This document shows positions 3,111 through 49,825 of a stretch of 64,000 nucleotides of DNA, one piece after another. The stretch lies in IMG/VR virus record IMGVR_UViG_3300024221_000009, positions 27,387 through 91,386 of that record; one strand, given 5' to 3'. Positions within the stretch are counted from its first letter, which is position 1. Each line of letters opens with the position of its first letter. The position numbers and the translations under genes are program-made. The stretch comes from a virus. The notes beneath the pieces were generated by a model. The model did not search any database, was not told the origin of the DNA, and saw nothing but the letters and a program-made list of their open reading frames with translations.

Positions 3111-3130
3111 TAAAAAATAATAAAAATTAA

Positions 3131-8000: not shown

Positions 8001-8730
8001 TACATCAGATCCTATACTAAGTGATCCAATACCAATAGGATCAGTATATGGTTATGACGACGGTGTATTGGTACACGTAAATCACCCAGCTATTGTAGAA
8101 AATCCAGATTCTGATATTGTAGATTTACAGTCTAACGGATTCTTTAGTATTCCTAAAACAGCATCACTTAGAGCTAACGAAATTAATGGTAAAAAACAAA
8201 TACCTTTAAAATTAACAGTAGATTCTGTAACAACGGATTCATCAAATCCATATAGAACATCTATTAAAACATCGTTTGAACCTAATGATCAATATTTATT
8301 AGGTGGAAAATCATGTGGATCTTTCTTATATCTTTCGCCTCTAGATAATAAATCACATGTTGTGAATGCTAATAATAAATCTGGTAAAAAGGTTATAAGT
8401 GCAAACGGAAATAATAGTGTAATAATAGATTTAGTTTTCCAATACAGAATGACTGATTATAATGGAGTTGGAGATACAGGTACTGGTAGAATTGCAGGAG
8501 CTATTGGAACAACATACGAAAATTTAACTTATTCTAAAAATATAGGTATTGATATATTAGATTCACAAGATAAAGATTTTAAATTTGATTTAGAGGTTTT
8601 TGCAAAATACAAAACAACTGGTAAAAATATAAATTCTATTAATTCTTCAATGTTATCTAACTTTATAAATACATCTGGAGCTTCCGGTGGAGGAATTGGA
8701 GGACAACAGTACATTCAAGAACTAAGGTAA
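5098..8730 (+). CDS. Large putative virion structural protein, 1210 aa
   Basis: Long ORF with coiled-coil and beta-rich segments, tightly coupled to its neighbours in the structural block. Confidence 0.5.
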   Translation: MSAQNSISQLLEQFLELNTNSLETFNRINEAISTDKQTVTVDLYDPSNEGSVKSVQIPAFGYLKREIERLNKNLESITNVDKGGANVRLKDGTYRTLFTSKLKGPSAPITSLAAPTQFNTKSNEFFEDFLNPLLTIKLDVSGQIPVETERVYIERFIFDGSDPLTLERFKEVYKGESEISHSKLESDIAENNLKHYVDSEVIELPVRSVQYFGKFDVIKITNEQRSQLVDGITQTKTIKLFTVDKLSYSDASKSLKDTEVLKVNDSLVVNSGKLRTRYLIKSIDNSTSQIELELIEGYESIKVGTQMLSVYRDVDSDLDIEINVGFDERQIVFIKPIDALSNIPSDDYSPGVSFYSNELIINGADGRKQTLSSYYREEVADFGQFIKSLNVDYIPPSSVGVMPKSPTVSAENLKVVQINKHLTNNTTTQKIQRLKSDKIAEEQNLKNLNESIKQKKTLLSTKKFKSTVERDKQRNELNSQIAVKAASTQLYSSIVSEIKASAESSDLNTVSPKFRVRGFWPVPDPIKIGEGLSQEVVQFKIRYRYVSTSGKTSQVEQIEFNDSSSQTSKTAAFSNWVEVDGPVRKREKGEDGKYKWITESEEDAQAVNFNSIDVPINSGEFVEVMVKSVSEAGFPANPVTSDWSDIIKVEFPEGELSTESLSDLVSSNNLDSVKVDINDDLTSAGVFEHISDNFTAGDKYFAHSANALASGFLTQEQSPISIYDKLLELQNEITRLRSQIEGAIGELTVEIIDEDGNVTPVTNNSRVKLFAGYYTEELPETNYKGHIVTKNFKIKLSNNQGADLELIARILGDTSKPSWISSTNTTFGLGNGSVDTVTASDSYYTNEGKYDLVPIVYQNLELEDLVYDYFNEGPEQSTQLRGQFIYSRFKNIANDNTFYIDDQANDIPNNKSGFDLFEYGVQETYGITGVTDVGSNGCYDFSGVNWVPNATAGNNTIDYIWNGICRTSTSDPILSDPIPIGSVYGYDDGVLVHVNHPAIVENPDSDIVDLQSNGFFSIPKTASLRANEINGKKQIPLKLTVDSVTTDSSNPYRTSIKTSFEPNDQYLLGGKSCGSFLYLSPLDNKSHVVNANNKSGKKVISANGNNSVIIDLVFQYRMTDYNGVGDTGTGRIAGAIGTTYENLTYSKNIGIDILDSQDKDFKFDLEVFAKYKTTGKNINSINSSMLSNFINTSGASGGGIGGQQYIQELR

Positions 8731-25747: not shown

Positions 25748-27256
25748 TTGGTACTAACATTAACAGATGATAATCAATTTCTACGAATTGATGATGCTAC
25801 TGAACTTGAGTTAGAACAGATTACAATCTCCCTTACAAAAAGAATTGAAAGTTGGAGATTTAATCCGTTAGTAAAACGAGGAGTGTGGGATGGTTATGTC
25901 TCTTATATTAAAGATGACAAATGGATTCCAGCTGGACTATGGAGGCATGTTATACAAATTTGTAAAGATTATAAGATAGAGATTCAAATGAACGGAATAA
26001 AACGTTTAATTGATCCAGATATTAACGCAGAAGCATTTGAAGAATGGGCTCTTAATTTCTTTAAAGGTGCTGAGATAACTCCAAGAGATTATCAAATAGA
26101 AACAGCATATAACATACTTAAATTTAGAAAGTGTTTAGCGGAGTTGGCAACATCAGCTGGTAAAACTTTAATTAGTTTTATGACTGTTGCATATATGCTA
26201 GAAAAGAAAAAAGCTCAAAAAATATTATTTATAGTACCTAACGTATCTTTAGTTGTACAGGCCCATGAAGATTTTCATGAATATAATTACATGAATAAAG
26301 TTAATTTAAAGATTCAACAGATATATTCAGGTAAAAAAATTAAAAGTAATAAAAATATAATTATTGGTACATATCAATCTTTAGTAAAAAAAGATAAAGA
26401 ATATTTTAGTCAATTTGACGCTGTTTTAGTAGATGAAACTCACAAAGCAAAAAGCGCATCTATAAAAACAATATTACAAAAATGTACTAACGCAAAATAT
26501 AAATTTGGTCTTTCAGGAACAATTCCTAAAGATGGATCTCTTGATAAATTAACTCTTATGAGCCAGACTGGTCCAGTTATTAGTGAAGTCAAAGCGGCTT
26601 TTCTACAAAAACAAGGACATATTGCAAAATGTTTGGTTAAAGTAATTCAAATGAACTATGCAACAGAAAATCAAAGACAAGCGTTTCAAGAGCTTGCGCA
26701 GAACAAATATGATAGAAAGGATGTTTTCCAACTTGAACAAAATTTTATTATTAATAACGAAGCACGTCTTGATTTTATCTCAAGCGTTATTTCCAGAGTA
26801 CCCAGGAATAGCCTTGTCCTTTTTCACAGGATTGAACACGGTAAAAAATTATATGAAAAACTTAGACAAGAAAGCGATAAAAGAGTTTTTTATGTGGATG
26901 GCGGAACCAATACTGATATTAGAGAAGAATATAAAAAGAAAATGGAAGCCGGTGAAGAAGTTGTCATCGTTGCGTCCTATGGTACTTTCTCAACAGGGAT
27001 CTCGATTAAAAAAATACACAACATATTCTTTACGGAATCTTTTAAAAGTGAAGTGATTATCAGGCAATCAATAGGACGTGGTTTAAGGCAACATGAATCA
27101 AAGGACAAGGTTTTAATAATCGACTTTGTTGACGACATTAGAACGCAAGAGTGGGATAATTATCTATATAAACATGGTAAAGCTCGCCAGGCAATATATA
27201 AACAAGAAAAGTTTGATTATAATATTAAAATAGTCAATTTTGAAGGAGATATATAA
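25748..27256 (+). CDS. uvsW: SF2 DNA helicase UvsW-like (TTG start)
   Basis: PRDYQ, ATSAGKT, DETH, GLSGT, STGISI and QSIGRGLR motifs. Confidence 0.92.
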   Translation: MVLTLTDDNQFLRIDDATELELEQITISLTKRIESWRFNPLVKRGVWDGYVSYIKDDKWIPAGLWRHVIQICKDYKIEIQMNGIKRLIDPDINAEAFEEWALNFFKGAEITPRDYQIETAYNILKFRKCLAELATSAGKTLISFMTVAYMLEKKKAQKILFIVPNVSLVVQAHEDFHEYNYMNKVNLKIQQIYSGKKIKSNKNIIIGTYQSLVKKDKEYFSQFDAVLVDETHKAKSASIKTILQKCTNAKYKFGLSGTIPKDGSLDKLTLMSQTGPVISEVKAAFLQKQGHIAKCLVKVIQMNYATENQRQAFQELAQNKYDRKDVFQLEQNFIINNEARLDFISSVISRVPRNSLVLFHRIEHGKKLYEKLRQESDKRVFYVDGGTNTDIREEYKKKMEAGEEVVIVASYGTFSTGISIKKIHNIFFTESFKSEVIIRQSIGRGLRQHESKDKVLIIDFVDDIRTQEWDNYLYKHGKARQAIYKQEKFDYNIKIVNFEGDI

Positions 27257-27291
27257 GATATACGTAAATAAAATAAATAAAATTTATAAAA

Positions 27292-29712
27292 ATGGCAAAA
27301 ATGAATAAAATCAGTTCTTTTCAAACTTTTTCTGAAGTAAGAGAGGCTGAAAATGCTGATAAACTACAACAAGAAAATCAAGCTAAAAGATTAGAGCTAA
27401 CAGAAAGAATAGGTAAAATATTAGATGAAATGGAAATAACATCTTTTGAAGACTTAGACGAAGAAGTTAGAGATCAATTAGTAGAAAAAACGTTCGGATT
27501 AGTTAAAGAAGGAGATAAAACAAAAGTTTCTAAAAAAGAAATTAAAATGCATCTGGATATGTTCCAAGCAGGAGACATCGATGGTAATGATTTATCACAA
27601 GCTATTTCTGCAATTATATTCGGAGAAGTAAAAGGACCGGGTATGGAATCTAAAGATTCTGAACAGGTTTCAGAAGCAACTGTTGTTATGGACGCAATAA
27701 ACCCTGATGATAAAGATTTCTTAAAATTCTTAAAAAAGAATAAAGTTAAAGTAATTGACACTGTAAAATCAGGCCCAAGTGGACATCCTGAAATTACAAT
27801 GCAAGGAAAAAGAAAAGATCTTGAAGCAGTATTAGCTGACGGTGAATTAGGATGGGATGATCCTGGTTTAGCAGAATTTATTGAAGAATCAATAAACATT
27901 TCAGAAGCAGTAATAGTTACTGGTAGAAGAGACGCTAAAAAAGTTTTAACAGCATACACTAAATTTTTCCAAAAATATCCAGCATTAGCTGATAGGAGAT
28001 TTGCAGGTTTACATTTAGGAGCAATCAAATCCTTAATGGTTTCTGCATTAACAGATGCTAATTTTCATAGAGAATCAGCAGCGTGCGGAAAGTCTATTAA
28101 AGGAGCAAAGCTTCAACCTGTTTTTATTAAGCCAATGGAATTAAATAAAACAGAAATTAAAATACCTGTTGGTAAAGTAGCATCTATTTTAGATGATAAT
28201 GCATCTCTTATTTCTGGTGCAGCCGGCTTTTCTGGTTTAGGTATTGCTGAAGGAACAGCATTATACTTAGATTCTCTTAAATATGTTAAAGAAGCAGAAG
28301 CAGTTATTGCATGTTTTAATTCTACGTTTGAAAGTGAAGTTACTGACGTAACAGAAGGTAATGCATTTTTAGGAGCTAGAGCTAAGGCTATTGAAGAAGA
28401 TGCTGAAGAATTTGAATTTAACGGTAAAAAATATCCAGTAATTAAAGAATCAGAAGAAGTTACTGAATCAGCCGAACCAAAGTGTAATAATAAAAAAGGA
28501 CATTTATATAAGCAAATTGATAAGGACGGAACGGTAGAATGCGTGCACTGTGGTCTAAGAAATTCATTAAGCGAATCAGAGGTTAATGAAGCTAAATCTT
28601 TTAAAAATACTGAAGATTTTGAAGCATTTTTAAAGGAAATCGATGCTATGCCAGAAAGAGCAGTTAGAAAGATAATGGGTAAAGAATATATCGATACTCC
28701 TGGTTTTTATGAAGATGAAAAGGATGATTATGATGATGTAATTGACTTCATGATTTCAAACATGGGTGCAGATATTTATCACCAATTAGAACAGTGGTGG
28801 GAAAACAATGTTCAAGAATCAGCAGTTACTGAAGCTAAATTTGTAAAAGATTTTGATAAAGATGTTTTAGATGCTGAAACCAAAGCAGATATAACAACTT
28901 ACTACCCTTCTGCTAAATTCTTTATAGGTAAATCAACCCACTTCTTCGGAGAATTAGATAAAAATTTATTTTTTAAAGCATATTATAAAGATTATGTAAA
29001 GAAGGCTGGTGGTAAAATCGATGGTGATTTTAAAATTGTAATGATATATTCTGAAAAAGGTAGAAATTTTGTACCTTTATTTACTAGAGAAGTTACTGAA
29101 TCAGTGGTTACTGAAGCTAAAATTAATTCTGACGAAGAGTTTAAAGAATATGCTACAACTGTTTTACAAAAAGCGTTTGGTGAAGATTATGACGAAGCAA
29201 AAGCAAACGAAGTTATTGATGGTATTTTAGCAAAAGTTGACGGAGATTACGGCGCTGCTGTAGGAATGTTAACATCTTCATTAGGAGAATCAGTAGTTAC
29301 TGAAAAAACATATAATAAAAAGTCTTTAATGAAAGCAATGAAAGCCGATGATGGTATGATACAATTAGGCAATGGTCAAGAATATGTTATCTACGCTTAC
29401 GGTAATGGTAATGATGATAACGACAATATGTGGGGAGATAAATCAATCTTTGCGTTAGACCAAGACGGCGAAGAGCATGAAATTGAATATTCTGATATTG
29501 TAAGTTATAATGAAGCTAACGCTGATGGAACTATTTCAGATGATGAAGACGAAAAAAGAGAAGAACTTTTAAATAGAGTTAAAGAACAAATGGAAGAGCT
29601 ATTAGCATCTGCTGAATTTGATGCTAAAGAAATTGGTGGTTCTTTTAGATCTCCTGGTATTATGTTTGATATTAGAAAACAACTTGATAAGCAAGTTAAA
29701 AAGTTTAAATAA
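27292..29712 (+). CDS. Modular polyprotein A, predicted internal head (cargo) protein with about 10 modules
   Basis: CTS-like SFQTFSEVRE. Recurrent linkers VSE|A, ISE|A, VTE|G, VTE|S, VNE|A, VTE|A (twice), VTE|K and YNE|A separate unrelated modules. Late promoter at 27248. Confidence 0.65.
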   Translation: MAKMNKISSFQTFSEVREAENADKLQQENQAKRLELTERIGKILDEMEITSFEDLDEEVRDQLVEKTFGLVKEGDKTKVSKKEIKMHLDMFQAGDIDGNDLSQAISAIIFGEVKGPGMESKDSEQVSEATVVMDAINPDDKDFLKFLKKNKVKVIDTVKSGPSGHPEITMQGKRKDLEAVLADGELGWDDPGLAEFIEESINISEAVIVTGRRDAKKVLTAYTKFFQKYPALADRRFAGLHLGAIKSLMVSALTDANFHRESAACGKSIKGAKLQPVFIKPMELNKTEIKIPVGKVASILDDNASLISGAAGFSGLGIAEGTALYLDSLKYVKEAEAVIACFNSTFESEVTDVTEGNAFLGARAKAIEEDAEEFEFNGKKYPVIKESEEVTESAEPKCNNKKGHLYKQIDKDGTVECVHCGLRNSLSESEVNEAKSFKNTEDFEAFLKEIDAMPERAVRKIMGKEYIDTPGFYEDEKDDYDDVIDFMISNMGADIYHQLEQWWENNVQESAVTEAKFVKDFDKDVLDAETKADITTYYPSAKFFIGKSTHFFGELDKNLFFKAYYKDYVKKAGGKIDGDFKIVMIYSEKGRNFVPLFTREVTESVVTEAKINSDEEFKEYATTVLQKAFGEDYDEAKANEVIDGILAKVDGDYGAAVGMLTSSLGESVVTEKTYNKKSLMKAMKADDGMIQLGNGQEYVIYAYGNGNDDNDNMWGDKSIFALDQDGEEHEIEYSDIVSYNEANADGTISDDEDEKREELLNRVKEQMEELLASAEFDAKEIGGSFRSPGIMFDIRKQLDKQVKKFK
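28447..29310 (+). repeat. Dispersed 24-bp linker repeats GAATCAGnRGTTAmTGAAGCTAAA between polyprotein modules
   Basis: Copies at 28573, 28816, 29098 and 29287. Variants at 28447, 34247 and 36642. Confidence 0.75.
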
Positions 29713-29772: not shown

Positions 29773-30075
29773 ATGAAGAAAGCAAAATTATATGAAGAGT
29801 TTATCAACGAAGAAATCTATTTAACATATAGTGAAATCGTAGGTTATCAATTTGATAAGTTTTTAGAATCATATTTTAAACTAAATAAAGATAACAAAAC
29901 AGTTTACGATAAAAAAGAAGATTTTACGTATGGTTTTAGAAAAGGATCTAAAACTGCACATTGGAAATATGATCACGATAATTTCGAATTACACCACAGT
30001 GAAAAAGAATTTCATGTCTTAGGTCTTATAAATTTTTATAAACAAGCATCAAAGGGACATCCCTGGTCTAAATAA
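29773..30075 (+). CDS. Small internal-protein-like cargo with capsid-targeting N-terminus
   Basis: MKKAKLYEEFINE|E resembles the T4 IP CTS MKTYQEFIAE. Confidence 0.55.
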   Translation: MKKAKLYEEFINEEIYLTYSEIVGYQFDKFLESYFKLNKDNKTVYDKKEDFTYGFRKGSKTAHWKYDHDNFELHHSEKEFHVLGLINFYKQASKGHPWSK

Positions 30076-30085
30076 AACATACGCA

Positions 30086-31369
30086 ATGAAAATATTATCA
30101 TTTAAAGATTTCTTAATAGAAAGAGAAAATAAAGAAGTATTAGACTCTAAATTAATTTTAGAAGGTGGGGCAGCAGGTCACATGTCACATCCATTTGATG
30201 AAAAAGATTTGACATTTGCAGATTTTAAAAAGATAGTAACTGCTGGTCTTCAAGGTGAATTAAACTTTGAGGAAGAAGCAACTGAAAAAACGGATGGACA
30301 AAATGTATTTGCAACAGTTCAAGATGGAGAAGTAAAATTTGCCAGAAATAAAACTGAATTAGCAAATCCAATGGACTTGGCTACTTTTAAGAATAAGTTT
30401 GAAGGACATCCAAGTAAATTAGTACAAGATACTTTTCAATTTGCTGCAGAAGATTTAGCAAACTCATTAAATAAATTATCCCCTAAAGATTTAGAAGTTT
30501 TTGATAATGGTAAAAACTGGATGAACATGGAGTTAATTTACTCTAAGAATCCAAACGTTATCTACTATGACCGCGATGTTATTCAATTTCATGGTATAAA
30601 GAAAACTGATGGTGAAGGTAATACTATTGGAGAAGATAACAAACCAGCAAGATCAATTGCGAAAGCAATGCAAGATCTTAAAATTAATGTTGGTAAAACA
30701 TTTACAGTTATCCCACCTCAAATTATTAAATTAGGTAAAGATTTAGAATTTGATAAAAATCAATCTAAATTTATAAAACAAATAGAAGCGTTAAGAGATC
30801 GTTATAAATTAACAGACGCTGATGAAGTTTCTAGATATCATGAAATGTGGTGGAGAGAAACAATAGATACAAATTTCCCTGATTTACAACAAGACTATAA
30901 AGAAGGTTTATTATTAAGATGGGCTTATGGAAATAAGAAGTCTTTAAATATGAGAAGTCTTGCAAAGGAAATAGGAAAAGATGAAGCAGCTTCTGTTAAG
31001 AAATTCGACAAAGAAGATGTTAAAAAGAAATATAAAGAAAACATTAGACCTTTTGAAGATTTATTCTTAGAACTAGGATCTATAATTCTTAAAAATGCTT
31101 CTAATTTTGTAGCAGCAAATCCAGACAAGGAAATGCAAAGATTACATAATCAAATTAGAAGTGAATCAGAAAAAATTAAAAAAGGCGGAGGAGAAGCTCA
31201 AATTGCAAAAGTAGAAGCTGAACTTGCTAGGTTAGAAAGAATTGGTGGTGTAGAATCTATTATACCAACTGAAGGAATAGTCTTTGTATATAAAGGAAAA
31301 ACAATGAAATTAACAGGTACGTTTGCAGCCATTAATCAATTAATGGGAATTATAAAGTACGGAAGATAA
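30086..31369 (+). CDS. ATP-dependent ligase-superfamily nucleotidyltransferase (DUF6267-like) with a CTS-like leader
   Basis: Motif I TEKTDGQN, motif IV TEGIVF and motif V KLTG. The leader MKILSFKDFLIE...LILE| precedes GGAAGHMSHPFD. Confidence 0.65.
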   Translation: MKILSFKDFLIERENKEVLDSKLILEGGAAGHMSHPFDEKDLTFADFKKIVTAGLQGELNFEEEATEKTDGQNVFATVQDGEVKFARNKTELANPMDLATFKNKFEGHPSKLVQDTFQFAAEDLANSLNKLSPKDLEVFDNGKNWMNMELIYSKNPNVIYYDRDVIQFHGIKKTDGEGNTIGEDNKPARSIAKAMQDLKINVGKTFTVIPPQIIKLGKDLEFDKNQSKFIKQIEALRDRYKLTDADEVSRYHEMWWRETIDTNFPDLQQDYKEGLLLRWAYGNKKSLNMRSLAKEIGKDEAASVKKFDKEDVKKKYKENIRPFEDLFLELGSIILKNASNFVAANPDKEMQRLHNQIRSESEKIKKGGGEAQIAKVEAELARLERIGGVESIIPTEGIVFVYKGKTMKLTGTFAAINQLMGIIKYGR

Positions 31370-33310: not shown

Positions 33311-35521
33311 ATGGATAAATCACACTTTAATCAAGATGATAGAGTAGATGAAGGGAAAATAACAATAAAAAGACGTTATACTGAAAACTACCCTGCAAAA
33401 ACTGTTGGTAAATCAGCAAAAATAAGAAACAAAATGTTGGAAGCAATTTCGGACGGGGCTATTACCCAAGAAGAATTTGATTCTATCATAGCAGAATTAT
33501 CATCTGATTCAAAAAGATGGTTATCTCGTAATTCTAGGTTATTTAATATTACAGAGGCTGGAATAACATTAACAGGGTTAGGTAGAAAGATTTTATCTCA
33601 AATTACAGTAAATGAAAAAACAGAAAAGAATCCAGAAATATGGGTTCCTGGAAAATTTGATAAAGAAGTTTCTAAATTATCAGCTGATGAATTAACACTA
33701 GACAATATAAAAAAATTATCAAAAAAACATAGAGTATTTTTACAAGATGCAATAGCGTATGTTGAATATAGCTTCGATGTTGATATTGTAGAAAATAAAG
33801 AAAATAATATGAAAACAAAATTAGTATTTGAATCTTTCGGAGATTTTGTAAACTCATTAGATAAAAATAATGAAGAATTAAACGAAGGCACTAGAGGCCA
33901 ATTCGGAATGATTGATAAAAAAGGAAATATACAGTCAGTATATATGCATTATGATTCATATCCTGAAAACATTCTACCATTAATAAAAAGAGGTTACGGA
34001 AACTCTAAAAAAGTACAAGCAGTTATTGATAGAGGAGATACTTCTGGATTAGATAAAACAGTTGATACTATGAATTTCTATGAAGATGGTAGAAAGCCAA
34101 CTTCAGGTAAAAAAGCAGACATTGCACGTTATATTAAAAAAGCAGCTGATGATGGTGGAGCAGAATACATCTATTTATATGATGAGTCTGATAAAACTTG
34201 GTACATGGTTGATGTTTATGGAGACATGCAATTAGTTCCTGCATTTGAATCAGTAATTAATGAAGCTGTAAACGCAACTGCTTATATTAAAGCTGGTAAA
34301 TTAGGTTATAATGATCAATTCTTAGCAAAGAGATCTTTATCATGGACATTATCAGTTGACTTAGGTCTAAAAGCATCTGATGAATTTGTCGGACCATGGT
34401 TAGGATTCGATTATGTATCATTATATGCTATTGGTAAAAAAGGAGGAACAATTATTGATGATGCCTTAACTGGTAAATATACTTATGACGAATTAAAAGC
34501 AGCAGCAGCTGATTTTTTAGGTATTAAAGAATCAGAAGAAGCTTTAGGTGAATCAGAAGATACTGAACTTAATGAAGCATTTAAATCTTCTAAATTAAGA
34601 AATTTAGTAAATATGGATCAATCACAACGTGATGGATATGGTAAAGCAAGAAATTTAGCAGCTGCTATTTATGGATTATCAAAACTAAAATTAGATAAAA
34701 TTGAAGATTCTTCTTTAATTGATGTAGATCCTAAAGAAGCTTATAAAAAATATCAAAACAATAGAGACTATTTAGTTTTTTATATAGTAGACAACGAAAA
34801 AGAAAATGAATACAGCAAAGGTTCATTTACATCATTAATAAAACCAGGTATTTTAGCTTTAACCAGAGGAAAAGACTTTTTATCAGTTCAATATGTTCAA
34901 TCTAGAAATAGATCAGTTGATCGTACTTTAGGAAAAGATGATGGTAATGCAATTGGTGGTAATAAAAGATATTCTGGATATGATGCATCGGGTATTTCTT
35001 CAGTTGTAAGAGCTTCTAAATTAGCAGACAGAGCAATTGTAATTGATATTGTTAATGGTGGCGAAACTTCAAAAGAAGAAAGAAACGAAAGAGCAAGAGC
35101 AAAAGAAGGAGCTTTAGCTTTTAAATCTGACGCAGACTTTAAGAAAGCTAACAAGGCAAGATACCAAGAAATCTTATCAACTAAAGCTTCTAAGTTACCT
35201 CTTGATAAAATGGTTAATGACGCTATTGATGATTTAGGAAATCAAATTAAAGATGGTCTTAAGGCTAATAAAAAGACAGAATACGGAGAGCTTAAAATTG
35301 GAGAAAATTCTAAAGGTAGAGCAGTTAAAATCACAGATGCTTCAAACCACATGGGTAGAATCTTATCTGATTATCAAAGATATGTTGAATACATGGTAAA
35401 AGCAGAAGAAGAAAAAGGTAGAGATTATTCATCAGGATATTACGAAAAGAATTCAAAACAATACGCTAAAGATATTAAAGATGCAGTTAAAAAAATACCT
35501 ACGTTCGATTACGCTTGGTAA
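33311..35521 (+). CDS. Modular polyprotein B, predicted internal head (cargo) protein
   Basis: Linkers VDE|G, VNE|K, LNE|G, INE|A and LNE|A. Internal CTS-like MKTKLVFESFGDFVN at 33809. Late promoter at 33274. Confidence 0.65.
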   Translation: MDKSHFNQDDRVDEGKITIKRRYTENYPAKTVGKSAKIRNKMLEAISDGAITQEEFDSIIAELSSDSKRWLSRNSRLFNITEAGITLTGLGRKILSQITVNEKTEKNPEIWVPGKFDKEVSKLSADELTLDNIKKLSKKHRVFLQDAIAYVEYSFDVDIVENKENNMKTKLVFESFGDFVNSLDKNNEELNEGTRGQFGMIDKKGNIQSVYMHYDSYPENILPLIKRGYGNSKKVQAVIDRGDTSGLDKTVDTMNFYEDGRKPTSGKKADIARYIKKAADDGGAEYIYLYDESDKTWYMVDVYGDMQLVPAFESVINEAVNATAYIKAGKLGYNDQFLAKRSLSWTLSVDLGLKASDEFVGPWLGFDYVSLYAIGKKGGTIIDDALTGKYTYDELKAAAADFLGIKESEEALGESEDTELNEAFKSSKLRNLVNMDQSQRDGYGKARNLAAAIYGLSKLKLDKIEDSSLIDVDPKEAYKKYQNNRDYLVFYIVDNEKENEYSKGSFTSLIKPGILALTRGKDFLSVQYVQSRNRSVDRTLGKDDGNAIGGNKRYSGYDASGISSVVRASKLADRAIVIDIVNGGETSKEERNERARAKEGALAFKSDADFKKANKARYQEILSTKASKLPLDKMVNDAIDDLGNQIKDGLKANKKTEYGELKIGENSKGRAVKITDASNHMGRILSDYQRYVEYMVKAEEEKGRDYSSGYYEKNSKQYAKDIKDAVKKIPTFDYAW

Positions 35522-35522
35522 T

Positions 35523-37004
35523 ATGAAAACAATGTATACATCATTTAGCGAATTTTCAAGAGGGATTAAAGAAAACATTTCACCAGAAAGTATTGGAGGA
35601 ATGGGAGATGTTATATTACCGAATGGTGATGAACTAGGTTCTGGCGATATTCCTTCTGAAGAAGATGATGAAAATAAAGAAAAAATAAATACAAAATCTA
35701 TGGATTTTAATAGTTTTATAAACAAATCAACGGTTAGTAAATTAGTCATTGAGAAATCAGCAACAGATACTCTAGCGGATGATGTTTCTGGAGAATTATA
35801 TATTGCAAAACTTAAAGGCAAGTCAGCTACTATTAAAGCAACGACTACGACAAAGACATGGGATGATGGAGTCCCGGTATTAAAGTATTTAGCAAGAGGT
35901 AAAAGTAAATCAATGTCTTTTGATTTATATCAAAGACCTTTTCAAGTGGTACACGACTATGCACATGGCTGGTGGTACTTCACAGATGGTGGAAAATGGT
36001 ACGGATTGCACGTAAGCGACGGTTATAGTGAAGCTGCTGATTTACCATTCGATATGCAAATTCCAGAAAACAAAATACAAGAAGGTGTTATGTCTGACAT
36101 TCACCAAATGATAGGTAATCATAAAACTTTTGATTCATTTCAAAAAGAATTCTTTAAAGAATATGGAGATAATAAAGCTATGAAAAAAACCAAAGACTTT
36201 TTAGAATGGCTAGAAGCTTTATATTCAGATTCACAATATGCAGTATCTGAGGCAAGACCAGGTACTTACACGTACCAAATGGATAGTGAAGGAAATACTA
36301 GAAAAGTATTACCGCCATATTATGGTAATTCAGAACTTCATGATAAATCAAAAGAACTATTTAAAAAACCATGGAAAAAGCTTAGTGATAAACAACAAGA
36401 TGAAGTTTTAGCAGCCTTTGAAATAGTTGAAGCAAGATCAATTGCAAAAATACAAAAAGAATATGGAAGTGTAGTAACTGATATGAAAGATCTTGTTAAA
36501 GATTATGTAAAAATGTCAGATGATAATTCTGAAAAAGCTAAGACAAGACAATTACTTATAGATTTAACTTCTAAGAAAAAATCATTAATGTCAGAATTAG
36601 ATGACGCAGTAGGTATCAAAGATTTAAATATTGAATTAGCAGAATCAGTAAATGAATCAATGAGTTCTTACTATTTCACGAGTCCTAGCGAATACGGTCA
36701 ATTTGCAAATGAAGCACCTGCAAAGGGTGAAACTAAATATTTAGTAATGGCTACTAATAAAGCAAACTTTAATGGTCAAGAAATTAGACTAGAAGGTGGA
36801 GTTAGATTTGGTTCAACCTCTAAAAAAGAAATTTTAGGAGTTTTTGATAAAGAATCAGAAGCTTTAACATTTTATAAATCAGCTATGAAAAAACCAGAAG
36901 GAACATTTGTTTCTTTCTCAATGGGAACGGTTGTCGGTGAAACTAAATTTAGATCGCAATATACTGAAATTCAAGGATATTTAGCAACTGCAAAGGTAAA
37001 ATAA
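35523..37004 (+). CDS. Modular polyprotein C, predicted internal head (cargo) protein
   Basis: ATG 35523, one base after the upstream stop, gives CTS-like MKTMYTSFSEFSRGIKE. Linkers VIE|K, IQE|G, VSE|A, IVE|A and VNE|S. Confidence 0.62.
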   Translation: MKTMYTSFSEFSRGIKENISPESIGGMGDVILPNGDELGSGDIPSEEDDENKEKINTKSMDFNSFINKSTVSKLVIEKSATDTLADDVSGELYIAKLKGKSATIKATTTTKTWDDGVPVLKYLARGKSKSMSFDLYQRPFQVVHDYAHGWWYFTDGGKWYGLHVSDGYSEAADLPFDMQIPENKIQEGVMSDIHQMIGNHKTFDSFQKEFFKEYGDNKAMKKTKDFLEWLEALYSDSQYAVSEARPGTYTYQMDSEGNTRKVLPPYYGNSELHDKSKELFKKPWKKLSDKQQDEVLAAFEIVEARSIAKIQKEYGSVVTDMKDLVKDYVKMSDDNSEKAKTRQLLIDLTSKKKSLMSELDDAVGIKDLNIELAESVNESMSSYYFTSPSEYGQFANEAPAKGETKYLVMATNKANFNGQEIRLEGGVRFGSTSKKEILGVFDKESEALTFYKSAMKKPEGTFVSFSMGTVVGETKFRSQYTEIQGYLATAKVK

Positions 37005-37102: not shown

Positions 37103-37480
37103 ATGAAAATAGCTTTAATAGCGCACGACAACAAAAAAGCTGACATGGTCGCTTTTGTATCAAAAAGATTACCTTTCTTTAATAGAAAGGATATTACTAT
37201 TGTAACCACTGGAACAACGGGAAAACACGTTATGCATGCTGGGATAGAAGACGTTATTAAAGTAAATTCAGGGCCACTTGGAGGAGATGCTCAGATAGCA
37301 GCAATGGTTACTGAAGGTGAAATAGATTTAGTTATCTTTTTAAGAGATCCATTAGGCAAACATCCACATGATGTTGATATCAGTATGTTAATGCGATTAT
37401 GCGACGTTCATGATATACCTCTCGCAACAAATTATAGAACAGCAAGCTACTTAGTTAAATATTTAAAATCTTGTAAATAA
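37103..37480 (+). CDS. mgsA: Methylglyoxal synthase
   Basis: IALIAHDNKK, TGTTG, SGPLGGDAQI, DPLxxHPHDVD and IPLATN motifs. Confidence 0.95.
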   Translation: MKIALIAHDNKKADMVAFVSKRLPFFNRKDITIVTTGTTGKHVMHAGIEDVIKVNSGPLGGDAQIAAMVTEGEIDLVIFLRDPLGKHPHDVDISMLMRLCDVHDIPLATNYRTASYLVKYLKSCK

Positions 37481-42279: not shown

Positions 42280-42746
42280 TGGCAAACATAGATAACGAAT
42301 GTAAAGACTTAGAAGTAAAAGACTTTTATGATCAGTCAAACACACACTTAGCAGATATCATGGAAAACCAAAAAAAGATGCAAGAGCAGACTTATGGTTT
42401 TAACTTTGATGATATGACAATTAGAGAAATTATGGATTTCTGGCACTGTAATACACATGCAGTTGTTGATGAAATTCACGAAATGACCGATGCTCTTGGT
42501 GGTATTAAAGATGGTTCTGGAAATGCAGTATGGAAATACTGGAAAAAAGACTTTACAAAATACGATACATTAAAGATTTCTGACATGTCTGAAGGAGACA
42601 AAAAAGAATTGTATATGGAATGGGTAGATATTCTACACTTCTTTATTAATTACGCCGCTTCAATCGGGCTAGATGCTAAAACAGCATATAACTATTATTT
42701 CGCAAAAGCAGAAGAAAATGTTAACCGTCAGAAAAATAACTATTAA
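42279..42746 (+). CDS. dCTP/dUTP pyrophosphatase (T4 gp56-like)
   Basis: NEC, DEIHEM..ALG, AVWKYWK, ISDMS..D..E, EWVDILHF and RQKNNY all match the T4 gp56 pattern. Confidence 0.88.
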   Translation: MANIDNECKDLEVKDFYDQSNTHLADIMENQKKMQEQTYGFNFDDMTIREIMDFWHCNTHAVVDEIHEMTDALGGIKDGSGNAVWKYWKKDFTKYDTLKISDMSEGDKKELYMEWVDILHFFINYAASIGLDAKTAYNYYFAKAEENVNRQKNNY

Positions 42747-44143
42747 TGATATTAGATATCGAACAAAGAGATAGGGATGTCATTGTTTCCTATTACGATA
42801 CTGAAGGTAAAGTAGCATATAAACAATATCCAATTGCTCAATTCCAGAATTGGTATATATGTGATGAAAAAGAAAAAGGAGTTAGTACTGAATTTAAAAA
42901 CTGGGATGGAAGGCCTGTTAAATTAGGAAACGCTAGACAATTCAATAAATTTTCATTAAATTATTTTATAGACGGATTACCTGAAAAAGATAAAGAAGAA
43001 ATTTTAGCATATAATATGCCTAAAACCTATTTTGTCGATATTGAAACCGAAATTGTAGATGGATTTCCTAAAGCTGAAGAAGCTAAAAGTAGAATTTTAT
43101 CATTCTCAATTATTACACCAGAACGTAAAGCAATTGTATTAGGACTGGAAGATATGGCTCCTGATAAAATTAAAAAGATCAATGATGATACTAATGAGTA
43201 TTTCAAAGACTTTGATCAGGATTGGGAATTTAAGTATCATAAGTTTAATACAGAATATGATATGGTATATACTTTTTTAATGAAGTTTTTACCTAAATTT
43301 CCAATGATGACTGGCTGGAACTTCATAAACTATGACTGGCAATATATCGTAAATAGATGTAAAAGATTACAAATAGATGTTGCTGAGGTAGGTATGACTA
43401 AGAAGGTTGATAGAAACGATTCTAGACCTTTACATATTGGTATTTTAGATTACATGCAGTTATATGATAAATATGATCGTAGTGTGAAAGTAAAAGAATC
43501 TAATGCACTTGATTATGTTTCTGGTCAAGTATTAAACGTAAAGAAGATTAAATACTCAGGCTCATTACAGGATTTATATAGAGATAATTTCGTTAAATAC
43601 ATTTATTATAACGTGGTCGATTCAGTGCTGGTATACTATATTGATCAAAAGTTAAAATCAATGGAAGTTCTTTTAACTCTTGCAAATATAACAAGAATGC
43701 CGCTATATAAAGCAGCTTCTCCAGTGGCAGTCACAGAATCTTTAATGGCAAGAAAGTTAGCAGAACAAGGAATGCGAATAGGAACTGAAAGAAGAGAAGA
43801 TAGTGAAAAGAATTCTCAATACGCCGGAGCATTTGTTAAAGAACCTATTGTTGGATATTATGAAGGTGTAAGTGCATTTGACTTTGCTTCCCTATACCCA
43901 TCTATAATGAGACAATTTAATATTTCGCCAGATGCTTATATAGAGCAGGTATATAAGACTGAGGTTGCGGAAAGACGTAAAGACAAAGACGTTATTGTTT
44001 GTGATAATGGTGTAGTTTATAAAAAAGATGATAGTATTCTTAAAAAGATATTAACAGATTTATATTCTCAGAGGAAACAATATAAAAAAATGTCGTATGA
44101 TTATTTTACTAAGGCTGATCAACTTAAAAAAAGATTAAGATAA
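42746..44143 (+). CDS. Family B DNA polymerase, N-terminal subunit (exonuclease, palm motif A, first fingers helix; gp43A)
   Basis: ExoI DIET, ExoII GWNFINYD, ExoIII YNVVD, YAGAFV and DFASLYPSIM. It stops after the helix ending RKQYKK and lacks motifs B and C. Confidence 0.9.
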   Translation: MILDIEQRDRDVIVSYYDTEGKVAYKQYPIAQFQNWYICDEKEKGVSTEFKNWDGRPVKLGNARQFNKFSLNYFIDGLPEKDKEEILAYNMPKTYFVDIETEIVDGFPKAEEAKSRILSFSIITPERKAIVLGLEDMAPDKIKKINDDTNEYFKDFDQDWEFKYHKFNTEYDMVYTFLMKFLPKFPMMTGWNFINYDWQYIVNRCKRLQIDVAEVGMTKKVDRNDSRPLHIGILDYMQLYDKYDRSVKVKESNALDYVSGQVLNVKKIKYSGSLQDLYRDNFVKYIYYNVVDSVLVYYIDQKLKSMEVLLTLANITRMPLYKAASPVAVTESLMARKLAEQGMRIGTERREDSEKNSQYAGAFVKEPIVGYYEGVSAFDFASLYPSIMRQFNISPDAYIEQVYKTEVAERRKDKDVIVCDNGVVYKKDDSILKKILTDLYSQRKQYKKMSYDYFTKADQLKKRLR

Positions 44144-44265: not shown

Positions 44266-45279
44266 ATGGAAAATTCAAATTTATTTATAGAGAGAGTAGA
44301 GTTCAAACCGTTTGAATATCCTGAATATTATACGGAAGGTTGGTTAAAACAAGCGCAAGCTTTTTGGCTACACACTGAAATATCAATGCAAGGAGATGTT
44401 AAAGATTGGAACGAAAAGTTAACAAAAGGAGAAAAGAATTTAGTTGGGAATATTCTTTTAGGCTTTGCTCAAACAGAATGTGCAGTGAGCGATTATTGGA
44501 CAACAATGGTAACCAAATGGTTTCCTAAACATGAAATTAAACAAATGGCAATGATGTTTGGTTCTCAAGAAACTATTCACGCAACAGCATACTCTTATTT
44601 AAATGAAACATTAGGTTTAGAAGATTTTGCTGCGTTTTTACACGAACCTGCTATTTCAGAAAAATTTGAATTATTAACTTCTACATCAGCCGATTATACA
44701 CACACTAACTTAGCAGAAGATGATAAAGCACGTAAAGAAGTTGCTAGATCACTTGCTATTTTTTCAGCTTTCGCTGAAGGAGTTTCACTATACAGTTCTT
44801 TCGCTGTTTTATATAGTTTTCAAATGAGAAACTTATTAAAAGGTATTGGACAACAAATGAAATGGTCTGTAAGAGATGAATCTCTACATTCTAAAATGGG
44901 ATGTCAATTATTTAAACAAATGGCAACTGAATATCCTGAGTTACAGGAGGATGTAAAAGAAGATGTTCTTAAAGCAGCTAAATTAATGGTTGAAATGGAA
45001 CACAAATTCATAGACATGATATTTGAACAAGGAGATCTTGAGAATCTTAAAGCAAATGATCTAAAGCAATTTATTATAAAAAGAGCTAATGAAAAGATTG
45101 CAGAATTAGGATATACAAAAGGTCCTTTTATGGAATATGATGAAGATGCTGCAGCAGAATTAGATTGGTTCTATCACTTAACAGGTGGAACAACACATAC
45201 TGATTTCTTTGCAACAAGATCTACAGATTATTCTAAAGCAGGTGAAGATGAAAACTGGGACGAAGACGAATTATTTTAA
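44266..45279 (+). CDS. nrdB: Ribonucleotide reductase class Ia beta subunit
   Basis: QETIHATAY (radical Tyr), EGVSLYSSF, RDESLH and TDFF motifs. Confidence 0.95.
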   Translation: MENSNLFIERVEFKPFEYPEYYTEGWLKQAQAFWLHTEISMQGDVKDWNEKLTKGEKNLVGNILLGFAQTECAVSDYWTTMVTKWFPKHEIKQMAMMFGSQETIHATAYSYLNETLGLEDFAAFLHEPAISEKFELLTSTSADYTHTNLAEDDKARKEVARSLAIFSAFAEGVSLYSSFAVLYSFQMRNLLKGIGQQMKWSVRDESLHSKMGCQLFKQMATEYPELQEDVKEDVLKAAKLMVEMEHKFIDMIFEQGDLENLKANDLKQFIIKRANEKIAELGYTKGPFMEYDEDAAAELDWFYHLTGGTTHTDFFATRSTDYSKAGEDENWDEDELF

Positions 45280-45300
45280 AAAGACTAAAACAATATAAAA

Positions 45301-47130
45301 ATGAGTAGCGAAAAAACAAATTATGGAGAATCACAAGGTTGGGAACTTGGTGTTGATTTTCCAACATGGGCAAACACAGAAATTTACGTAAAAACAATAA
45401 GCAACGGATATTTATTAGAAGGAGAAACGCCTAAAGACGCATATTGGAGAGTTGCAACAACAGTTGCTAAAAGGTTACAAAAACCTGAAATGGCTTCTAA
45501 ATTTTATGATTATATTTGGAGAGGTTGGTTAAATTTAGCTAGCCCAGTATTATCAAATACTGGAACTGAAAGAGGATTACCAATATCTTGTTTTGGTATC
45601 GATGTTGCCGATTCAATTCATGACATTGGTGCAAAGAATCTAGAGATGATGTTGTTAGCAAAACACGGAGGTGGAGTTGGTATTGGTATAAATCAAATTA
45701 GACCAGCAGGTGCAACTATACGAGGAAATGGAACATCAGACGGTGTAGTTCCTTTTTGTAAAGTATATGACTCAACTATTCTCGCAACTAACCAAGGTTC
45801 AGTTAGAAGAGGAGCTGCATCAGTTAATATAGATATTGAACATAAAGATTTTTGGGAATGGTTAGAAATTAGAGAACCTAAGGGAGATGTTAATAGACAA
45901 TCTTTAAATCTTCATCAATGCGTTGTTGTTTCTGATGGTTTCATGCAAAAAGTAAAAGAAGGAGATAAAGAAGCAAGAAAAAGATGGACGGCAGTTATTA
46001 GAAAAAGAAGAGCAACTGGAGAACCATATATAATGTTTAAAGGAAATATTAACAGAATGAATCCAGACGCATATAAGCAAAATGGATTAAAAGTTTACAT
46101 GACTAATATTTGTTCTGAAATTACACTACACACGGACGAAAACCATTCTTTTGTATGTTGCCTTTCATCTGTTAATTTATCAAGATATGATGAATGGAAA
46201 GATACTGATTTAATATACACTGCAACTTGGTTTTTAGATGGAGTATTAGAAGAATTTATTCAAAAAGCAAAATATATGCGTGGATTTGAAAACTCAATTC
46301 GTTCCGCTGAAAAAGGTAGAGCATTAGGATTAGGAGTTCTTGGATGGCATACATATTTACAAGATAGAAATATTCCATTTGAAGGTTTAACTGCACAATT
46401 TGAAACTCGTAAGATTTTTTCACAAATCAAGATTGAATCTGAAAGAGCATCAAGAGATATGGCAACTGAAATGGGAGAACCTCTATGGTGTGTTGGGACT
46501 GGAATGAGAAACACACACTTAAGGGCTATTGCACCTACAGTTTCTAATTCTAAATTAGCTGGAAACGTTTCCCCAGGTATTGAACCTTGGGCAGCAAATG
46601 TATTCACAGAACAAACTGCTAAAGGAACTTTTATTAGAAAGAATCAAACTTTAGAAAAATGCCTTGATAGTATTGGTAAAAATACAAAAAAGACATGGGA
46701 TCAAATTTTAAAAGATGGAGGATCAGTTCAAGGACTTGATTGGATAGATAATTACTCAGTACATATTGGTTCAAAAATAAATTTAGAATCAGGTTTAGGA
46801 AAACCTTTAACTAAAAAAGAAATTGAAAAAGAACCTCTTGAAAAACAAGGAGATTATATCCCTATGAAAGATGTTTTTAAAACATTTAAAGAAATTAATC
46901 AATTAGAGCTTGTAAGACAAGGTGGAATAAGACAACAATATGTCGATCAGGCTGTTTCATTAAATTTAGCATTTCCTACGGAAGCAGAACCTAAGTTTAT
47001 TAATCAAGTTCATTTAGAAGCATACGAACAGGGTATTAAAACTTTGTATTATATGAGAACTGAATCAGTATTAAGAGGAGATATTGCGCAATCAGCAATA
47101 GACCCAGATTGTTTAAGCTGTGACGGATAA
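45301..47130 (+). CDS. nrdA: Ribonucleotide reductase class Ia alpha subunit (no obvious ATP cone)
   Basis: SPVLSN, ISCF, GGGVG, TNICSEI, APTVSNS, KTLYY and C-terminal CLSC. Confidence 0.95.
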   Translation: MSSEKTNYGESQGWELGVDFPTWANTEIYVKTISNGYLLEGETPKDAYWRVATTVAKRLQKPEMASKFYDYIWRGWLNLASPVLSNTGTERGLPISCFGIDVADSIHDIGAKNLEMMLLAKHGGGVGIGINQIRPAGATIRGNGTSDGVVPFCKVYDSTILATNQGSVRRGAASVNIDIEHKDFWEWLEIREPKGDVNRQSLNLHQCVVVSDGFMQKVKEGDKEARKRWTAVIRKRRATGEPYIMFKGNINRMNPDAYKQNGLKVYMTNICSEITLHTDENHSFVCCLSSVNLSRYDEWKDTDLIYTATWFLDGVLEEFIQKAKYMRGFENSIRSAEKGRALGLGVLGWHTYLQDRNIPFEGLTAQFETRKIFSQIKIESERASRDMATEMGEPLWCVGTGMRNTHLRAIAPTVSNSKLAGNVSPGIEPWAANVFTEQTAKGTFIRKNQTLEKCLDSIGKNTKKTWDQILKDGGSVQGLDWIDNYSVHIGSKINLESGLGKPLTKKEIEKEPLEKQGDYIPMKDVFKTFKEINQLELVRQGGIRQQYVDQAVSLNLAFPTEAEPKFINQVHLEAYEQGIKTLYYMRTESVLRGDIAQSAIDPDCLSCDG

Positions 47131-48622: not shown

Positions 48623-49825
48623 ATGATAGAGATACAGGAACTTATTGATAAACCAGAAAGCGAGCTTAGTGTTCAAGAAACTGAAACATTGATTGATCAT
48701 TATCAAACAATGTCTGCAAAATACACAGCGTACGAACAGGCAGTTAAAGTAACACTAAACTCGATTTATGGTGCCTTTGGTAATAAATGGTTTCACTTTT
48801 TCGATATTGAAATAGCAGAATCAATTACATTACAAGGCCAAAGTGCCATTCTATATTCTGAAAAAATATTAAATAAATATTTTCAAGAATTTTGGCCAAA
48901 AGATACAGTAGTTCATGAACACTTTAATATTAGTATTAAAAATAAATTAGTAAGACCATCCGTAGTTTATATTGACACAGATTCTTGCTATGTTCAGTTT
49001 GAAGAAATGTATGAGTCTATTGAATGGTTAGGAGAATCAAAACCTCCTATTGATAAGTTTATTATGGATTTATATACGTTTAGACTTAGAGATTATATTA
49101 CAAAATGTATGCAAAAATATGCAGATGTTACTAATACAAAAAACTTTTTATTCTTTGAATTAGAATCAATTGCATATTCAGGTATATGGTTAGCAAAAAA
49201 GAAATATTTACAAAATATTGCATGGGAAGATCGATTAGACGTTTCTGATAGATATGATTCTCTTAAAAAAATTAAAACAATTGGTTTTGATACAATCCAA
49301 TCTTCAACACCGGCACTTGCACGTAAACATCTAACTGATGCTTTAAAAATAGTTCTTTCTGAAAAACCAACAGCAGATCTTCTTAAAAAGCTAGTAGATT
49401 ATTTAAAGAAAGGTAAGAAAGAATTTAAATTAGCAGATATAGACCAAATAGCATTTAATAAAAGAACAAATAATATTGAAAAATATATCGTAGATGATAC
49501 TATTGAATTTCAAATAGGTTTAAAGTGTCCACCTAATGTTAAAGCAGCAGGATTTTATAATTTCTTAATGAATCAATCTCCTAAATATAAAAACAAATAT
49601 AAAATGATAGGTAATGGTGAGAAATTAAAGTTATATCACTGTAAGCATTTATCGTGCGATATGTTTGCTTATTTACCAGGAGATCATCCTTATGAAATTG
49701 CGCCTGAGGTTGATTATGAACTACAATTTGAAAAAAGCGTAATAGACCCTTTAAATAGAGTATTGAAGGCAGTAGGTCTTCAGACTTTAAACAGAAATTT
49801 AATTTATTCAACATCATTATTTTAA
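48623..49825 (+). CDS. Family B DNA polymerase, C-terminal subunit (gp43B)
   Basis: Motif B KVTLNSIYGAFGN, SITLQGQ, motif C YIDTDS, KKKY, QSSTP and a clamp-binding-like tail STSLF. Confidence 0.9.
   Translation: MIEIQELIDKPESELSVQETETLIDHYQTMSAKYTAYEQAVKVTLNSIYGAFGNKWFHFFDIEIAESITLQGQSAILYSEKILNKYFQEFWPKDTVVHEHFNISIKNKLVRPSVVYIDTDSCYVQFEEMYESIEWLGESKPPIDKFIMDLYTFRLRDYITKCMQKYADVTNTKNFLFFELESIAYSGIWLAKKKYLQNIAWEDRLDVSDRYDSLKKIKTIGFDTIQSSTPALARKHLTDALKIVLSEKPTADLLKKLVDYLKKGKKEFKLADIDQIAFNKRTNNIEKYIVDDTIEFQIGLKCPPNVKAAGFYNFLMNQSPKYKNKYKMIGNGEKLKLYHCKHLSCDMFAYLPGDHPYEIAPEVDYELQFEKSVIDPLNRVLKAVGLQTLNRNLIYSTSLF

Follow-up and report, generated by a model that had tools for sequence, protein, structure and literature searches.

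A String of Unrelated Cassettes in One Reading Frame

The T4 capsid-targeting and protease system loads single proteins, some of which disarm host defences. Here, we describe a gene of a marine giant T4-related phage in which about 11 small, mutually unrelated protein units follow one another in a single open reading frame (ORF), joined by short linkers of recurrent sequence. The gene lies in a 64,000-nucleotide stretch of DNA, hereafter the window, which corresponds to bases 27387-91386 of the 91-kb IMG/VR fragment IMGVR_UViG_3300024221_000009; coordinates below are positions in the window unless another sequence is named. Polyprotein gene 1 occupies positions 27292-29712 of the plus strand and encodes 806 aa (90 kDa), divided into cassettes that we call, in order, A, L, E, C, D, F, G, H, I, J1, and J2. 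Two further genes of this kind are found on the same strand: polyprotein gene 2 (33311-35521; 736 aa), which draws on the same cassette pool as gene 1 and has five consensus sites, and polyprotein gene 3 (35523-37004), with a likely start at ATG 35523.

In a blastp self-comparison, the units of polyprotein 1 are unrelated to one another. AlphaFold models of the F-G-H-I and C-D segments consist of folded units, with pLDDT values of 85-95 for C and 72-85 for H and I and a drop to below 50 in five linkers. The cassettes are for the most part acidic (pI 4.1-4.8), and nine of the 11 have a pI between 4.1 and 6.0. An origin of the array by tandem duplication was ruled out because the cassettes have no mutual similarity.

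A whole-protein search with polyprotein 1 (806 aa) found no Pfam family at E ≤ 0.01 and no PHROG match, and 50,697 phage records contained no tblastn match to either the whole protein or C+D. Similarly, the ESM Atlas held no match for cassette function, a PDB profile search found no PDB sequence match for C+D, and Foldseek against PDB and BFVD returned nothing at E ≤ 0.001. A wide search with VIA-align produced generic helical-bundle matches alone, with Z below 6.

Linkers Conserved as Peptide and as DNA

An earlier note on this DNA had described four near-identical 24-nt repeats at 28573, 28816, 29098, and 29287, with variants at 28447, 34247, and 36642, set in frame between stretches of unrelated coding sequence. 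The four repeats are indeed in frame, where they encode ESEVNEAK, ESAVTEAK, ESVVTEAK, and ESVVTEKT, respectively, and all three variants are present at those positions. An independent repeat finder returned the same four copies as the top direct-repeat family (D1) of ORF 27292-29712, and a degenerate linker pattern matched the window seven times against 0.11 matches expected. The repeat-spacer architecture is equally borne out: the copies are spaced by 243, 282, and 189 nt, all multiples of three, and the 219, 258, and 165 nt between them encode segments without mutual similarity by blastp.

The linkers of polyprotein 1, all on the plus strand, can be followed along the gene (an arrow marks the presumed cut). 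The L/E linker (DSEQVSE↓A, 27655-27675) is a weaker copy, of repeat family D2; it coincides with a peak of high-scoring segment pair (HSP) ends at residue 128 and is the point where an extra cassette of relative L003 ends. The E/C linker (ESINISE↓A, 27886-27906) has its HSP-end peak at residue 205, and the C/D linker (ESEVTDVTE↓G, 28330-28356) combines such a peak with a pLDDT below 50 in the C+D model. The D/F linker (ESEEVTE↓S, 28447-28467) overlaps an exact 17-nt repeat, AGAAGTTACTGAATCAG (28455-28471), whose second copy (29088-29104, plus strand) adjoins the H/I linker. The four D1 copies are the linkers F/G (ESEVNE↓AK, 28573-28596), where pLDDT dips; G/H (ESAVTE↓AK, 28816-28839); H/I (ESVVTE↓AK, 29098-29121), with EVTE before it; and I/J1 (ESVVTE↓KT, 29287-29310). 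In most relatives, the ORF stops just before the position of the I/J1 linker, after ...SSLG. The last junction, J1/J2 (IVSYNE↓A, 29497-29514), is weak in the window, has an HSP-end peak at residue 741, and is a full ESAVTE↓A in relative L002.

The earlier note had also held that synonymous positions are largely conserved among the repeats, with the caveat that codon bias in an AT-rich genome explains part of the identity. Both statements are right, in that codon bias accounts for part of the identity and not for all of it. When codons for the same eight residues were drawn from genome or ORF usage, this null gave an identity of 0.69-0.72, whereas the pairwise nucleotide identity of the four linkers is 0.833 (p = 1e-4 and 6.5e-4). 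The excess extends to the family. In related contigs, 22 polyprotein ORFs supplied 61 unique linker contexts, in which GTT encodes 94% of Val versus a background of 53% (p = 4e-10) and ACT encodes 97% of Thr versus 56% (p = 1e-6), binomial values that overstate the evidence because the copies lack phylogenetic independence; Ala is GCT in 77% versus 43%, and Ser is TCA in 64% versus 40%. Linker codons are, moreover, homogeneous within a lineage, with TCA in all linkers of the window and of L005, and TCT in the single ES-type linker of L012-L017. Distant relatives have the same motif in other codons (GAG TCT GTA ATG AAT GAA).

A minus-strand match to ESVVTE at 8240, antisense to ORF 5098-8730, was treated as chance because the whole record has just one minus-strand ORF of at least 150 aa, which lies antisense within the polyprotein gene.

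Cassette Content and Order among Relatives

A scan of viral contigs yielded 21 related loci, all but one of which (L022) matched the window's flanking genes in the same order. In these 20 contigs, the syntenic locus reads primase-uvsY-uvsW-polyprotein-(orf100)-ligase-like-NTase. The flanking proteins of L002 are 96-99% identical to those of the window, and those of L003 mostly 97-99%, with the primase at 90% and the NTase at 85%. Beside these genes, the polyprotein ranges in length from 397 to 806 aa across the related loci.

The earlier note had suggested that the modules of the array may be shuffled, and their content and order are not fixed: the cassettes of the window are arranged in 105 different orders across 171 relatives. 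An exhaustive HMMER search brought the family to 971 representative relative proteins, in which the matched stretches are single cassettes. Read from the protein sequences, cassettes are gained, lost, duplicated, and reordered among relatives; within the 171, cassette A stays N-terminal and cassette I tends to come last. For instance, cassette E precedes C in the window and follows D in L019 and L021, and cassette L, N-terminal in the window, follows D in L004. Homology to relatives also breaks off where the units meet: 77% of 552 internal homology ends fall within 10 aa of one of the ten predicted junctions versus 27% expected, and each junction has a peak of its own.

The same units are shared between genes. 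A second scan found genomes that carry cassettes F and G in separate genes, as well as single ORFs, as long as 1111 aa, that combine units from polyproteins 1, 2, and 3 of the window; the cassettes of polyprotein 3, in which the linker variant is AESVNE↓S (36642-36659), turn up inside other polyproteins of relatives. Cassette B (33887-34264, plus strand; phrog_1987, with a YMHYD.YP motif), which ends in the linker ESVINE↓A (34247-34264), belongs to polyprotein 1 in most relatives but to polyprotein 2 in the window. It is also a stand-alone gene of ~120 aa in T4-like cyanophages and Streptococcus phages.

Cassette D, 37 aa long (GNAF.AAR.A.I....F...G..Y.V), is the most conserved unit and is present in two to three tandem copies in some polyproteins. 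It also occurs within the scaffold ORF of relative L024 (ORF 2972-4120, minus strand), with further sites in L021 (7381-7600) and L011 (5188), and could be a core-binding element. The polyprotein of L014 (about 7387-8017) is seemingly frameshifted in a D-like cassette, with a tblastn match that runs past the stop; either faulty assembly or a genuine truncation could account for this.

DNA Breakpoints at the Linkers

Every DNA breakpoint that we checked lies in a linker. In the comparison with L002, nucleotide homology ends at 28592, in linker F/G, and resumes at 28821, in linker G/H; the gap is cassette G (28591-28833, plus strand), a helical unit of 81 aa that is missing in both L002 and L003. 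In the comparison with L003, homology ends at 28467, the last base of linker D/F, and resumes at 29110, in linker H/I, leaving a gap of F-G-H, and the exact 17-nt repeat (copies starting at 28455 and 29088) brackets this same block. The identity between the window and L002 jumps at the joints: it is 86% in A, 82% in L, 97% in E, 97% in C, 99% in D, and 93% in F, followed by the absent G, 99% in H, 100% in I, no DNA match in J1, and 95% in J2. With L005, identity rises from 76% in F to 87.5% in linker F/G, 96.8% in G, and 100% in linker G/H, and returns to 79% in H, which is to all appearances the signature of a recent exchange of cassette G alone.

Joints of the same kind are found elsewhere in the family. 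In another lineage, the alleles L068 and L048 share 97-99% identity but are set apart by two cassettes, both inserted in frame and precisely between Glu and the residue after it. In polyprotein 2, the 104-aa cassette at 34265-34576 (plus strand) is missing in the L002 allele, which is otherwise 94-96% identical, and the joint falls exactly between the residues on either side of the presumed cut (P1 and P1′), with an 8-nt microhomology, AATGAAGC. Overall, some indel joints have 5-8 nt of microhomology or the 17-nt exact repeat alongside.

Contigs from seawater (four runs from four studies, including one RNA library) lose homology to the window at 28449, 28573/28577, 28803, 29097/29098, 29273, 29301/29304, and 29512. 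At linker F/G these are loose ends (28573 and 28577), at linker H/I joints to 29097/29098 in four runs, at linker I/J1 a loose end (29273) and joints (29301/29304), and at the weak J1/J2 junction loose ends (29512). One contig carries the cassette order J1-F-...-I. These contigs represent co-occurring relatives, not necessarily variants of one population, and gaps of depth or coverage in Logan contigs were not used as evidence. The earlier note had named two findings that would refute its suggestion, namely fixed module content and order in relatives and a DNA identity no higher than codon bias predicts, and neither was obtained. Thus, of the suggestion that the repeats may serve as microhomology sites for gain, loss, and reordering of modules, the location of the breakpoints stands; microhomology as their cause is a possible reading, argued mainly from the excess synonymous conservation.

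Putative Cut-Site Motif, Head Protease, and Leaders

We aligned the residues before each cassette start across relatives and derived a junction logo from 424 unique junctions. Glu occupies P1 in 93% of them and V/I/L/M occupies P3 in 88%; Asn or Thr is found at P2 and Ala or Gly at P1′, with a tendency to Glu-Ser at P6-P5, giving the consensus E-S-x-V-[N/T]-E↓[A/G]. The T4 prohead protease gp21 cleaves after L/I-x-E (PMC9026906), a rule that the linker consensus matches at the level of its residues.

A candidate enzyme is encoded in the window itself. One frame at 62298-63998 (plus strand), whose 3′ end runs off the window, specifies a prohead protease together with an acidic scaffold-like repeat region, and Peptidase_S77 (PF03420) is detected at 62331-62705 with 46.6 bits (cut-off 27). 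Past the S77 domain, at residue 165 of this ORF, there is a consensus VNE↓S site. The three polyproteins, 2049 residues together, contain 17 matches to the pattern [VILM][NTS]E↓[AGSK] versus 32 in the record's other 27,228 residues, a 7-fold enrichment (p = 9e-10). In two relatives, the major capsid protein starts MANLINE↓AEIR...IIEE↓ATGINE↓SAK.

The acidic region fused to the S77 protease is made of tandem EAVEETEEVEET-type repeats and resembles a scaffold; in T4, genes 21 and 22 are separate.

The T4 capsid-targeting sequence (CTS) is MKTYQEFIAE (PMC8442874), with residues 4, 7, 8, and 10 as the key positions (PMC9026906). Polyprotein 1 opens with MAKMNKISSFQTFSEVRE (27292-27345, plus strand), a CTS-like leader with an aromatic-x-x-F element (F-x-x-F), followed by V-R-E and a presumed cut before A. 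It matches the CTS more loosely than the leaders of orf100 (LYEEFINE) and of the ORF at 61887 (LYEDFIAE). The former gene (29773-30075) starts MKKAKLYEEFINE; the latter (61887-62228, plus strand; 113 aa) adjoins the protease gene on its upstream side, starts MKKVRLYEDFIAE, near the T4 CTS, and likely encodes a small core or internal protein. A ligase-like protein of 427 aa (30086-31369) starts MKILSFKDFLIE..LILE↓GG, and because of this CTS-like leader the enzyme may also be packaged in the head. Polyprotein 3, read from ATG 35523, has the CTS-like start MKTMYTSFSEF. Another CTS-like leader, MAKLKSFEQFLSE, forms the start of a 240-aa ORF upstream of the window (G000:C1:9149-9871).

Genomic and Ecological Context

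The record has a GC content of 30% and a CheckV completeness of 28%. Its window carries T4-type replication and recombination genes for primase, UvsY, UvsW, UvsX, a DnaB-like helicase, an SbcCD-like nuclease, ribonucleotide reductase, and a split family-B polymerase. UvsX is nearest to that of uncultured huge phages (61% to a 462-kb record), with Lak megaphages at 38%. The source is a marine giant T4-like phage. Nearly unchanged copies of the polyprotein gene are found in metatranscriptome libraries and in seawater or marine metagenomes from 17 studies, which marks the phage as ecologically widespread.

The earlier note had mentioned, beside its suggestion of shuffling, that UvsW and UvsY lie next to the array. 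Their adjacency is not specific evidence because the same T4-type module, an ordinary one for replication and recombination, has this synteny in all relatives, and a dedicated recombination system postulated from it was rejected on that ground.

Other features of the window are noted here for completeness. The family-B DNA polymerase consists of two ORFs (42746-44143 and 48623-49825) that lie ~4.5 kb apart, with the ribonucleotide reductase genes (44266-47130) in between. Directly 3′ of the polyprotein cluster lies a 125-aa ORF (37103-37480) in which Pfam detects an MGS-like (methylglyoxal synthase-type) domain (E = 4.6e-16). At 27287, 5 nt upstream of the polyprotein ATG, begins a metatranscriptome contig whose sequence is identical to the window, in a run without cover over 27000-27207; its start is a weak hint of a transcript start because contigs cannot define RNA ends.

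Interpretation and Alternatives

We consider it probable that polyprotein 1 is a capsid-loaded cargo polyprotein cut by the head protease, in which the codons of the cut sites double as recombination joints. The CTS-like leader would bring the 90-kDa chain into the prohead scaffolding core, where the S77 protease, of the T4 gp21 type, would cut after the Glu of each E-S-x-V-[N/T]-E↓[A/G/S/K] linker. Inside the capsid, cutting would free about ten small proteins of 4-16 kDa, each with a fold of its own, which could be delivered with the DNA or serve as core components. At the DNA level, the linkers, with roughly 18-24 nt of common coding DNA, would act as in-frame recombination joints because the same coding DNA bounds every cassette. 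Cassettes could thereby be deleted, inserted, swapped for distant alleles, and moved among the three polyprotein genes and between phage lineages, and repeated exchange through the linkers would keep their silent positions alike. The main reason for linker conservation is most likely the prohead-protease cleavage site, a role that the earlier note did not weigh.

A more far-reaching form of this reading, which we put forward tentatively, is a dual-purpose code. As peptide, the linker would allow one leader to load an arbitrary string of proteins; as DNA, it would provide universal in-frame docking. Such an integron-like arrangement would quickly diversify the virion-delivered effectors of abundant marine giant phages, with cassettes mobile among the three genes and among co-infecting lineages, possibly via excised circles like the PeSL units discussed in the next section.

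Several observations weigh against a cargo polyprotein with recombining cut sites. We infer cleavage, packaging, ejection, and homology-directed breakpoints from sequence, for an uncultured phage represented by DNA and metatranscriptome contigs only. P3 of the linkers is mostly Val, and the T4 rule has Leu or Ile. The polyprotein gene lies among replication genes, and the T4 late promoter TATAAATA is not enriched in the window, with 18 matches versus 18.2 expected. A recognisable function or fold was found for 0 cassettes in the Pfam, PHROG, ESM Atlas, PDB, Foldseek, and VIA-align searches. Most of the cassettes are acidic, unlike the basic T4 internal proteins, so they may be pieces of a core or scaffold rather than DNA-associated cargo. 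As to the DNA, the linker contexts share ancestry, which makes the binomial p-values of their codons upper bounds on the evidence, and purifying selection for in-frame, fold-preserving joints would likewise leave breakpoints in the linkers. Finally, the L002 and L003 junctions are not simple chimeras of the window's two flanking linkers; they therefore point to allele replacement from a wider pool, beyond local deletion.

The alternative that survives best grants the linkers their role as protease sites and cassette boundaries and denies their DNA any mechanistic part. Recombination would occur anywhere, the survivors being in-frame joints between folded units, and silent sites would be conserved because linkers move together with their cassettes and have a common ancestry, or because selection acts on codons where domains meet. 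Because the inter-cassette space is just about 8-12 residues, tolerated joints must fall in linkers whatever the mechanism; the L002 and L003 junctions, which are no simple chimeras, and the other codons that distant relatives use for the same motif also fit this account, and the favoured GTT, ACT, and GCT all end in T, which could reflect translational selection. However, GTT at 94% and ACT at 97% over 61 junction contexts are hard to obtain by protein-level selection alone, the linkers are homogeneous within a lineage (TCA in the window and L005, TCT in L012-L017), and at some indel joints there is a microhomology of 5-8 nt or an adjoining 17-nt exact repeat. The excess synonymous identity, the codon homogeneity within lineages, and these microhomologies would favour real recombination through the linkers, and we regard a DNA without a part in the exchange as possible but doubtful.

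A second alternative concerns the fate of the fragments. The cut protein could be a scaffold or core component instead of delivered cargo, with fragments that build the prohead core and are mostly expelled at maturation, like T4 gp22, gp67, and gp68. The acidity of most cassettes agrees with such a role, cassette D and acidic spacers (for example, EEEDQEFHE) are also present in the protease-scaffold ORF of relatives and of the window, and T4 core proteins are cleaved at many sites (PMC9026906). Even so, an essential scaffold is not expected to vary from 397 to 806 aa beside near-identical flanks, or to come in 105 architectures; cassette sizes of 6-16 kDa fit retained T4 internal proteins, not expelled peptides, and cassette B is a free gene in unrelated phages. 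On balance, a purely structural fate is unlikely.

It is more improbable still that polyprotein 1 is an ordinary uncleaved multidomain protein in which the motif is a favoured flexible linker. The predicted disorder of the linkers is what one would expect of passive ones, and cleavage is itself a prediction from motifs; but passive linkers need no fixed Glu (93%), no hydrophobic residue two positions before it (88%), and no small residue after it. The motif, moreover, fits the rule of a protease encoded in the same record, and it recurs past that protease's own domain and at the N-terminus of the relatives' capsid protein. Lastly, there is a negligible chance that the DNA similarity comes from nothing more than AT-rich codon usage in a peptide that recurs: with GAA (85-93%) and AAA (81-82%) as the prevailing codons of their families, some of the identity follows automatically, but a pure codon-bias origin is rejected by the null simulations (0.69-0.72 against 0.833 observed; p = 1e-4 to 6.5e-4) and by the family-wide codon excess (to p = 4e-10).

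If polyprotein 1 is indeed head-loaded cargo released at its linkers, abundant ocean phages would extend T4 loading to strings of exchangeable mini-proteins (971 representative relatives; 105 orders among 171) and would hold a large untapped reservoir of small virion-delivered proteins. The arrangement would amount to a natural design rule for placing several proteins in each phage head from one gene, namely a leader plus ESxV[T/N]E↓A linkers. It would also be a clear case of a short coding motif constrained both as peptide and as DNA. The particular contribution of the window is clear DNA-level evidence at the linkers.

Comparison with Known Systems

A literature search found no published description of such a phage polyprotein and returned analogues only. 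The internal proteins of T4 (IPI, IPII, IPIII, and Alt; PMC9026906, PMC3012670, PMC8442874) resemble it in their T4-type S77 protease and, more loosely, in a CTS-like leader with a putative hydrophobic-x-Glu cut. They are alike, too, in that the genes of the cargo, here a presumed one, are non-conserved, hypervariable, and away from the head-gene cluster, and the products predicted here would have 4-16 kDa. In T4, however, each cargo has a separate gene, its own 10-residue CTS, in which Asp at position 10 blocks cleavage, and one cut, whereas here up to 11 units share one leader and are separated by presumed internal sites. T4 internal proteins are small and basic; here, a single ORF of 806 aa, known from its sequence alone, encodes mostly acidic units, with P3 mostly Val.

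In the giant phages phiKZ, 201phi2-1, and SPN3US (PMC5694885, PMC9026906), a gp21-related prohead protease cleaves head and ejection proteins at several points each, behind the Glu of a short motif, as is proposed for the polyprotein. In phiKZ-type phages, long propeptides serve as targeting sequences (PMC5694885, PMC9026906), the motifs are S/A/G-x-E or A-x-E, and the extra cuts are mostly in propeptides that are discarded. In the literature found, no string of exchangeable unrelated cassettes is described for them.

Polyvalent proteins of phages and conjugative elements (Iyer et al. 2017, PMC5512222) also gather many unrelated domains in one polypeptide of highly variable architecture, and their delivery with the DNA and release by proteolysis have been proposed (PMC5512222). 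Their domains are recognisable enzymatic or anti-defence (effector, LPD) modules, often with an embedded zincin-like (MPTase) peptidase (PMC5512222). In polyprotein 1, by contrast, no known domain and no embedded peptidase were detected, and release would occur in trans, by the head protease, at a uniform linker.

For the exchange of units, the likeness is to PeSLs and to gp38 shuffling, in which short conserved sequences flank variable units, exchanges occur in or near them, and close phages differ by insertion, deletion, or replacement of the flanked units. PeSLs, however, are intergenic and combine a sigma70-like promoter with a stem-loop terminator, whereas the repeats described here lie in frame within one ORF and keep their peptide where the DNA differs. 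The gp38 motifs, for their part, are no cut sites and make up the core structure of a single folded domain, in contrast to an in-frame linker between separate folds that would serve as a protease site.

Eukaryotic RNA virus polyproteins follow the general plan proposed here, in which a protease of the virus itself cleaves a single product wherever a short motif recurs. The two are evolutionarily unrelated; in this double-stranded DNA phage, the protease is encoded elsewhere and would cut inside the prohead, and the content of units is fluid. None of the compared systems combines a uniform linker for a protease acting in trans with freely exchangeable, unrelated cassettes. The polyprotein is best read as an extension of the T4 plan of internal proteins with a CTS, in which every gene supplies a single cargo; here, one leader would serve a whole series of them.

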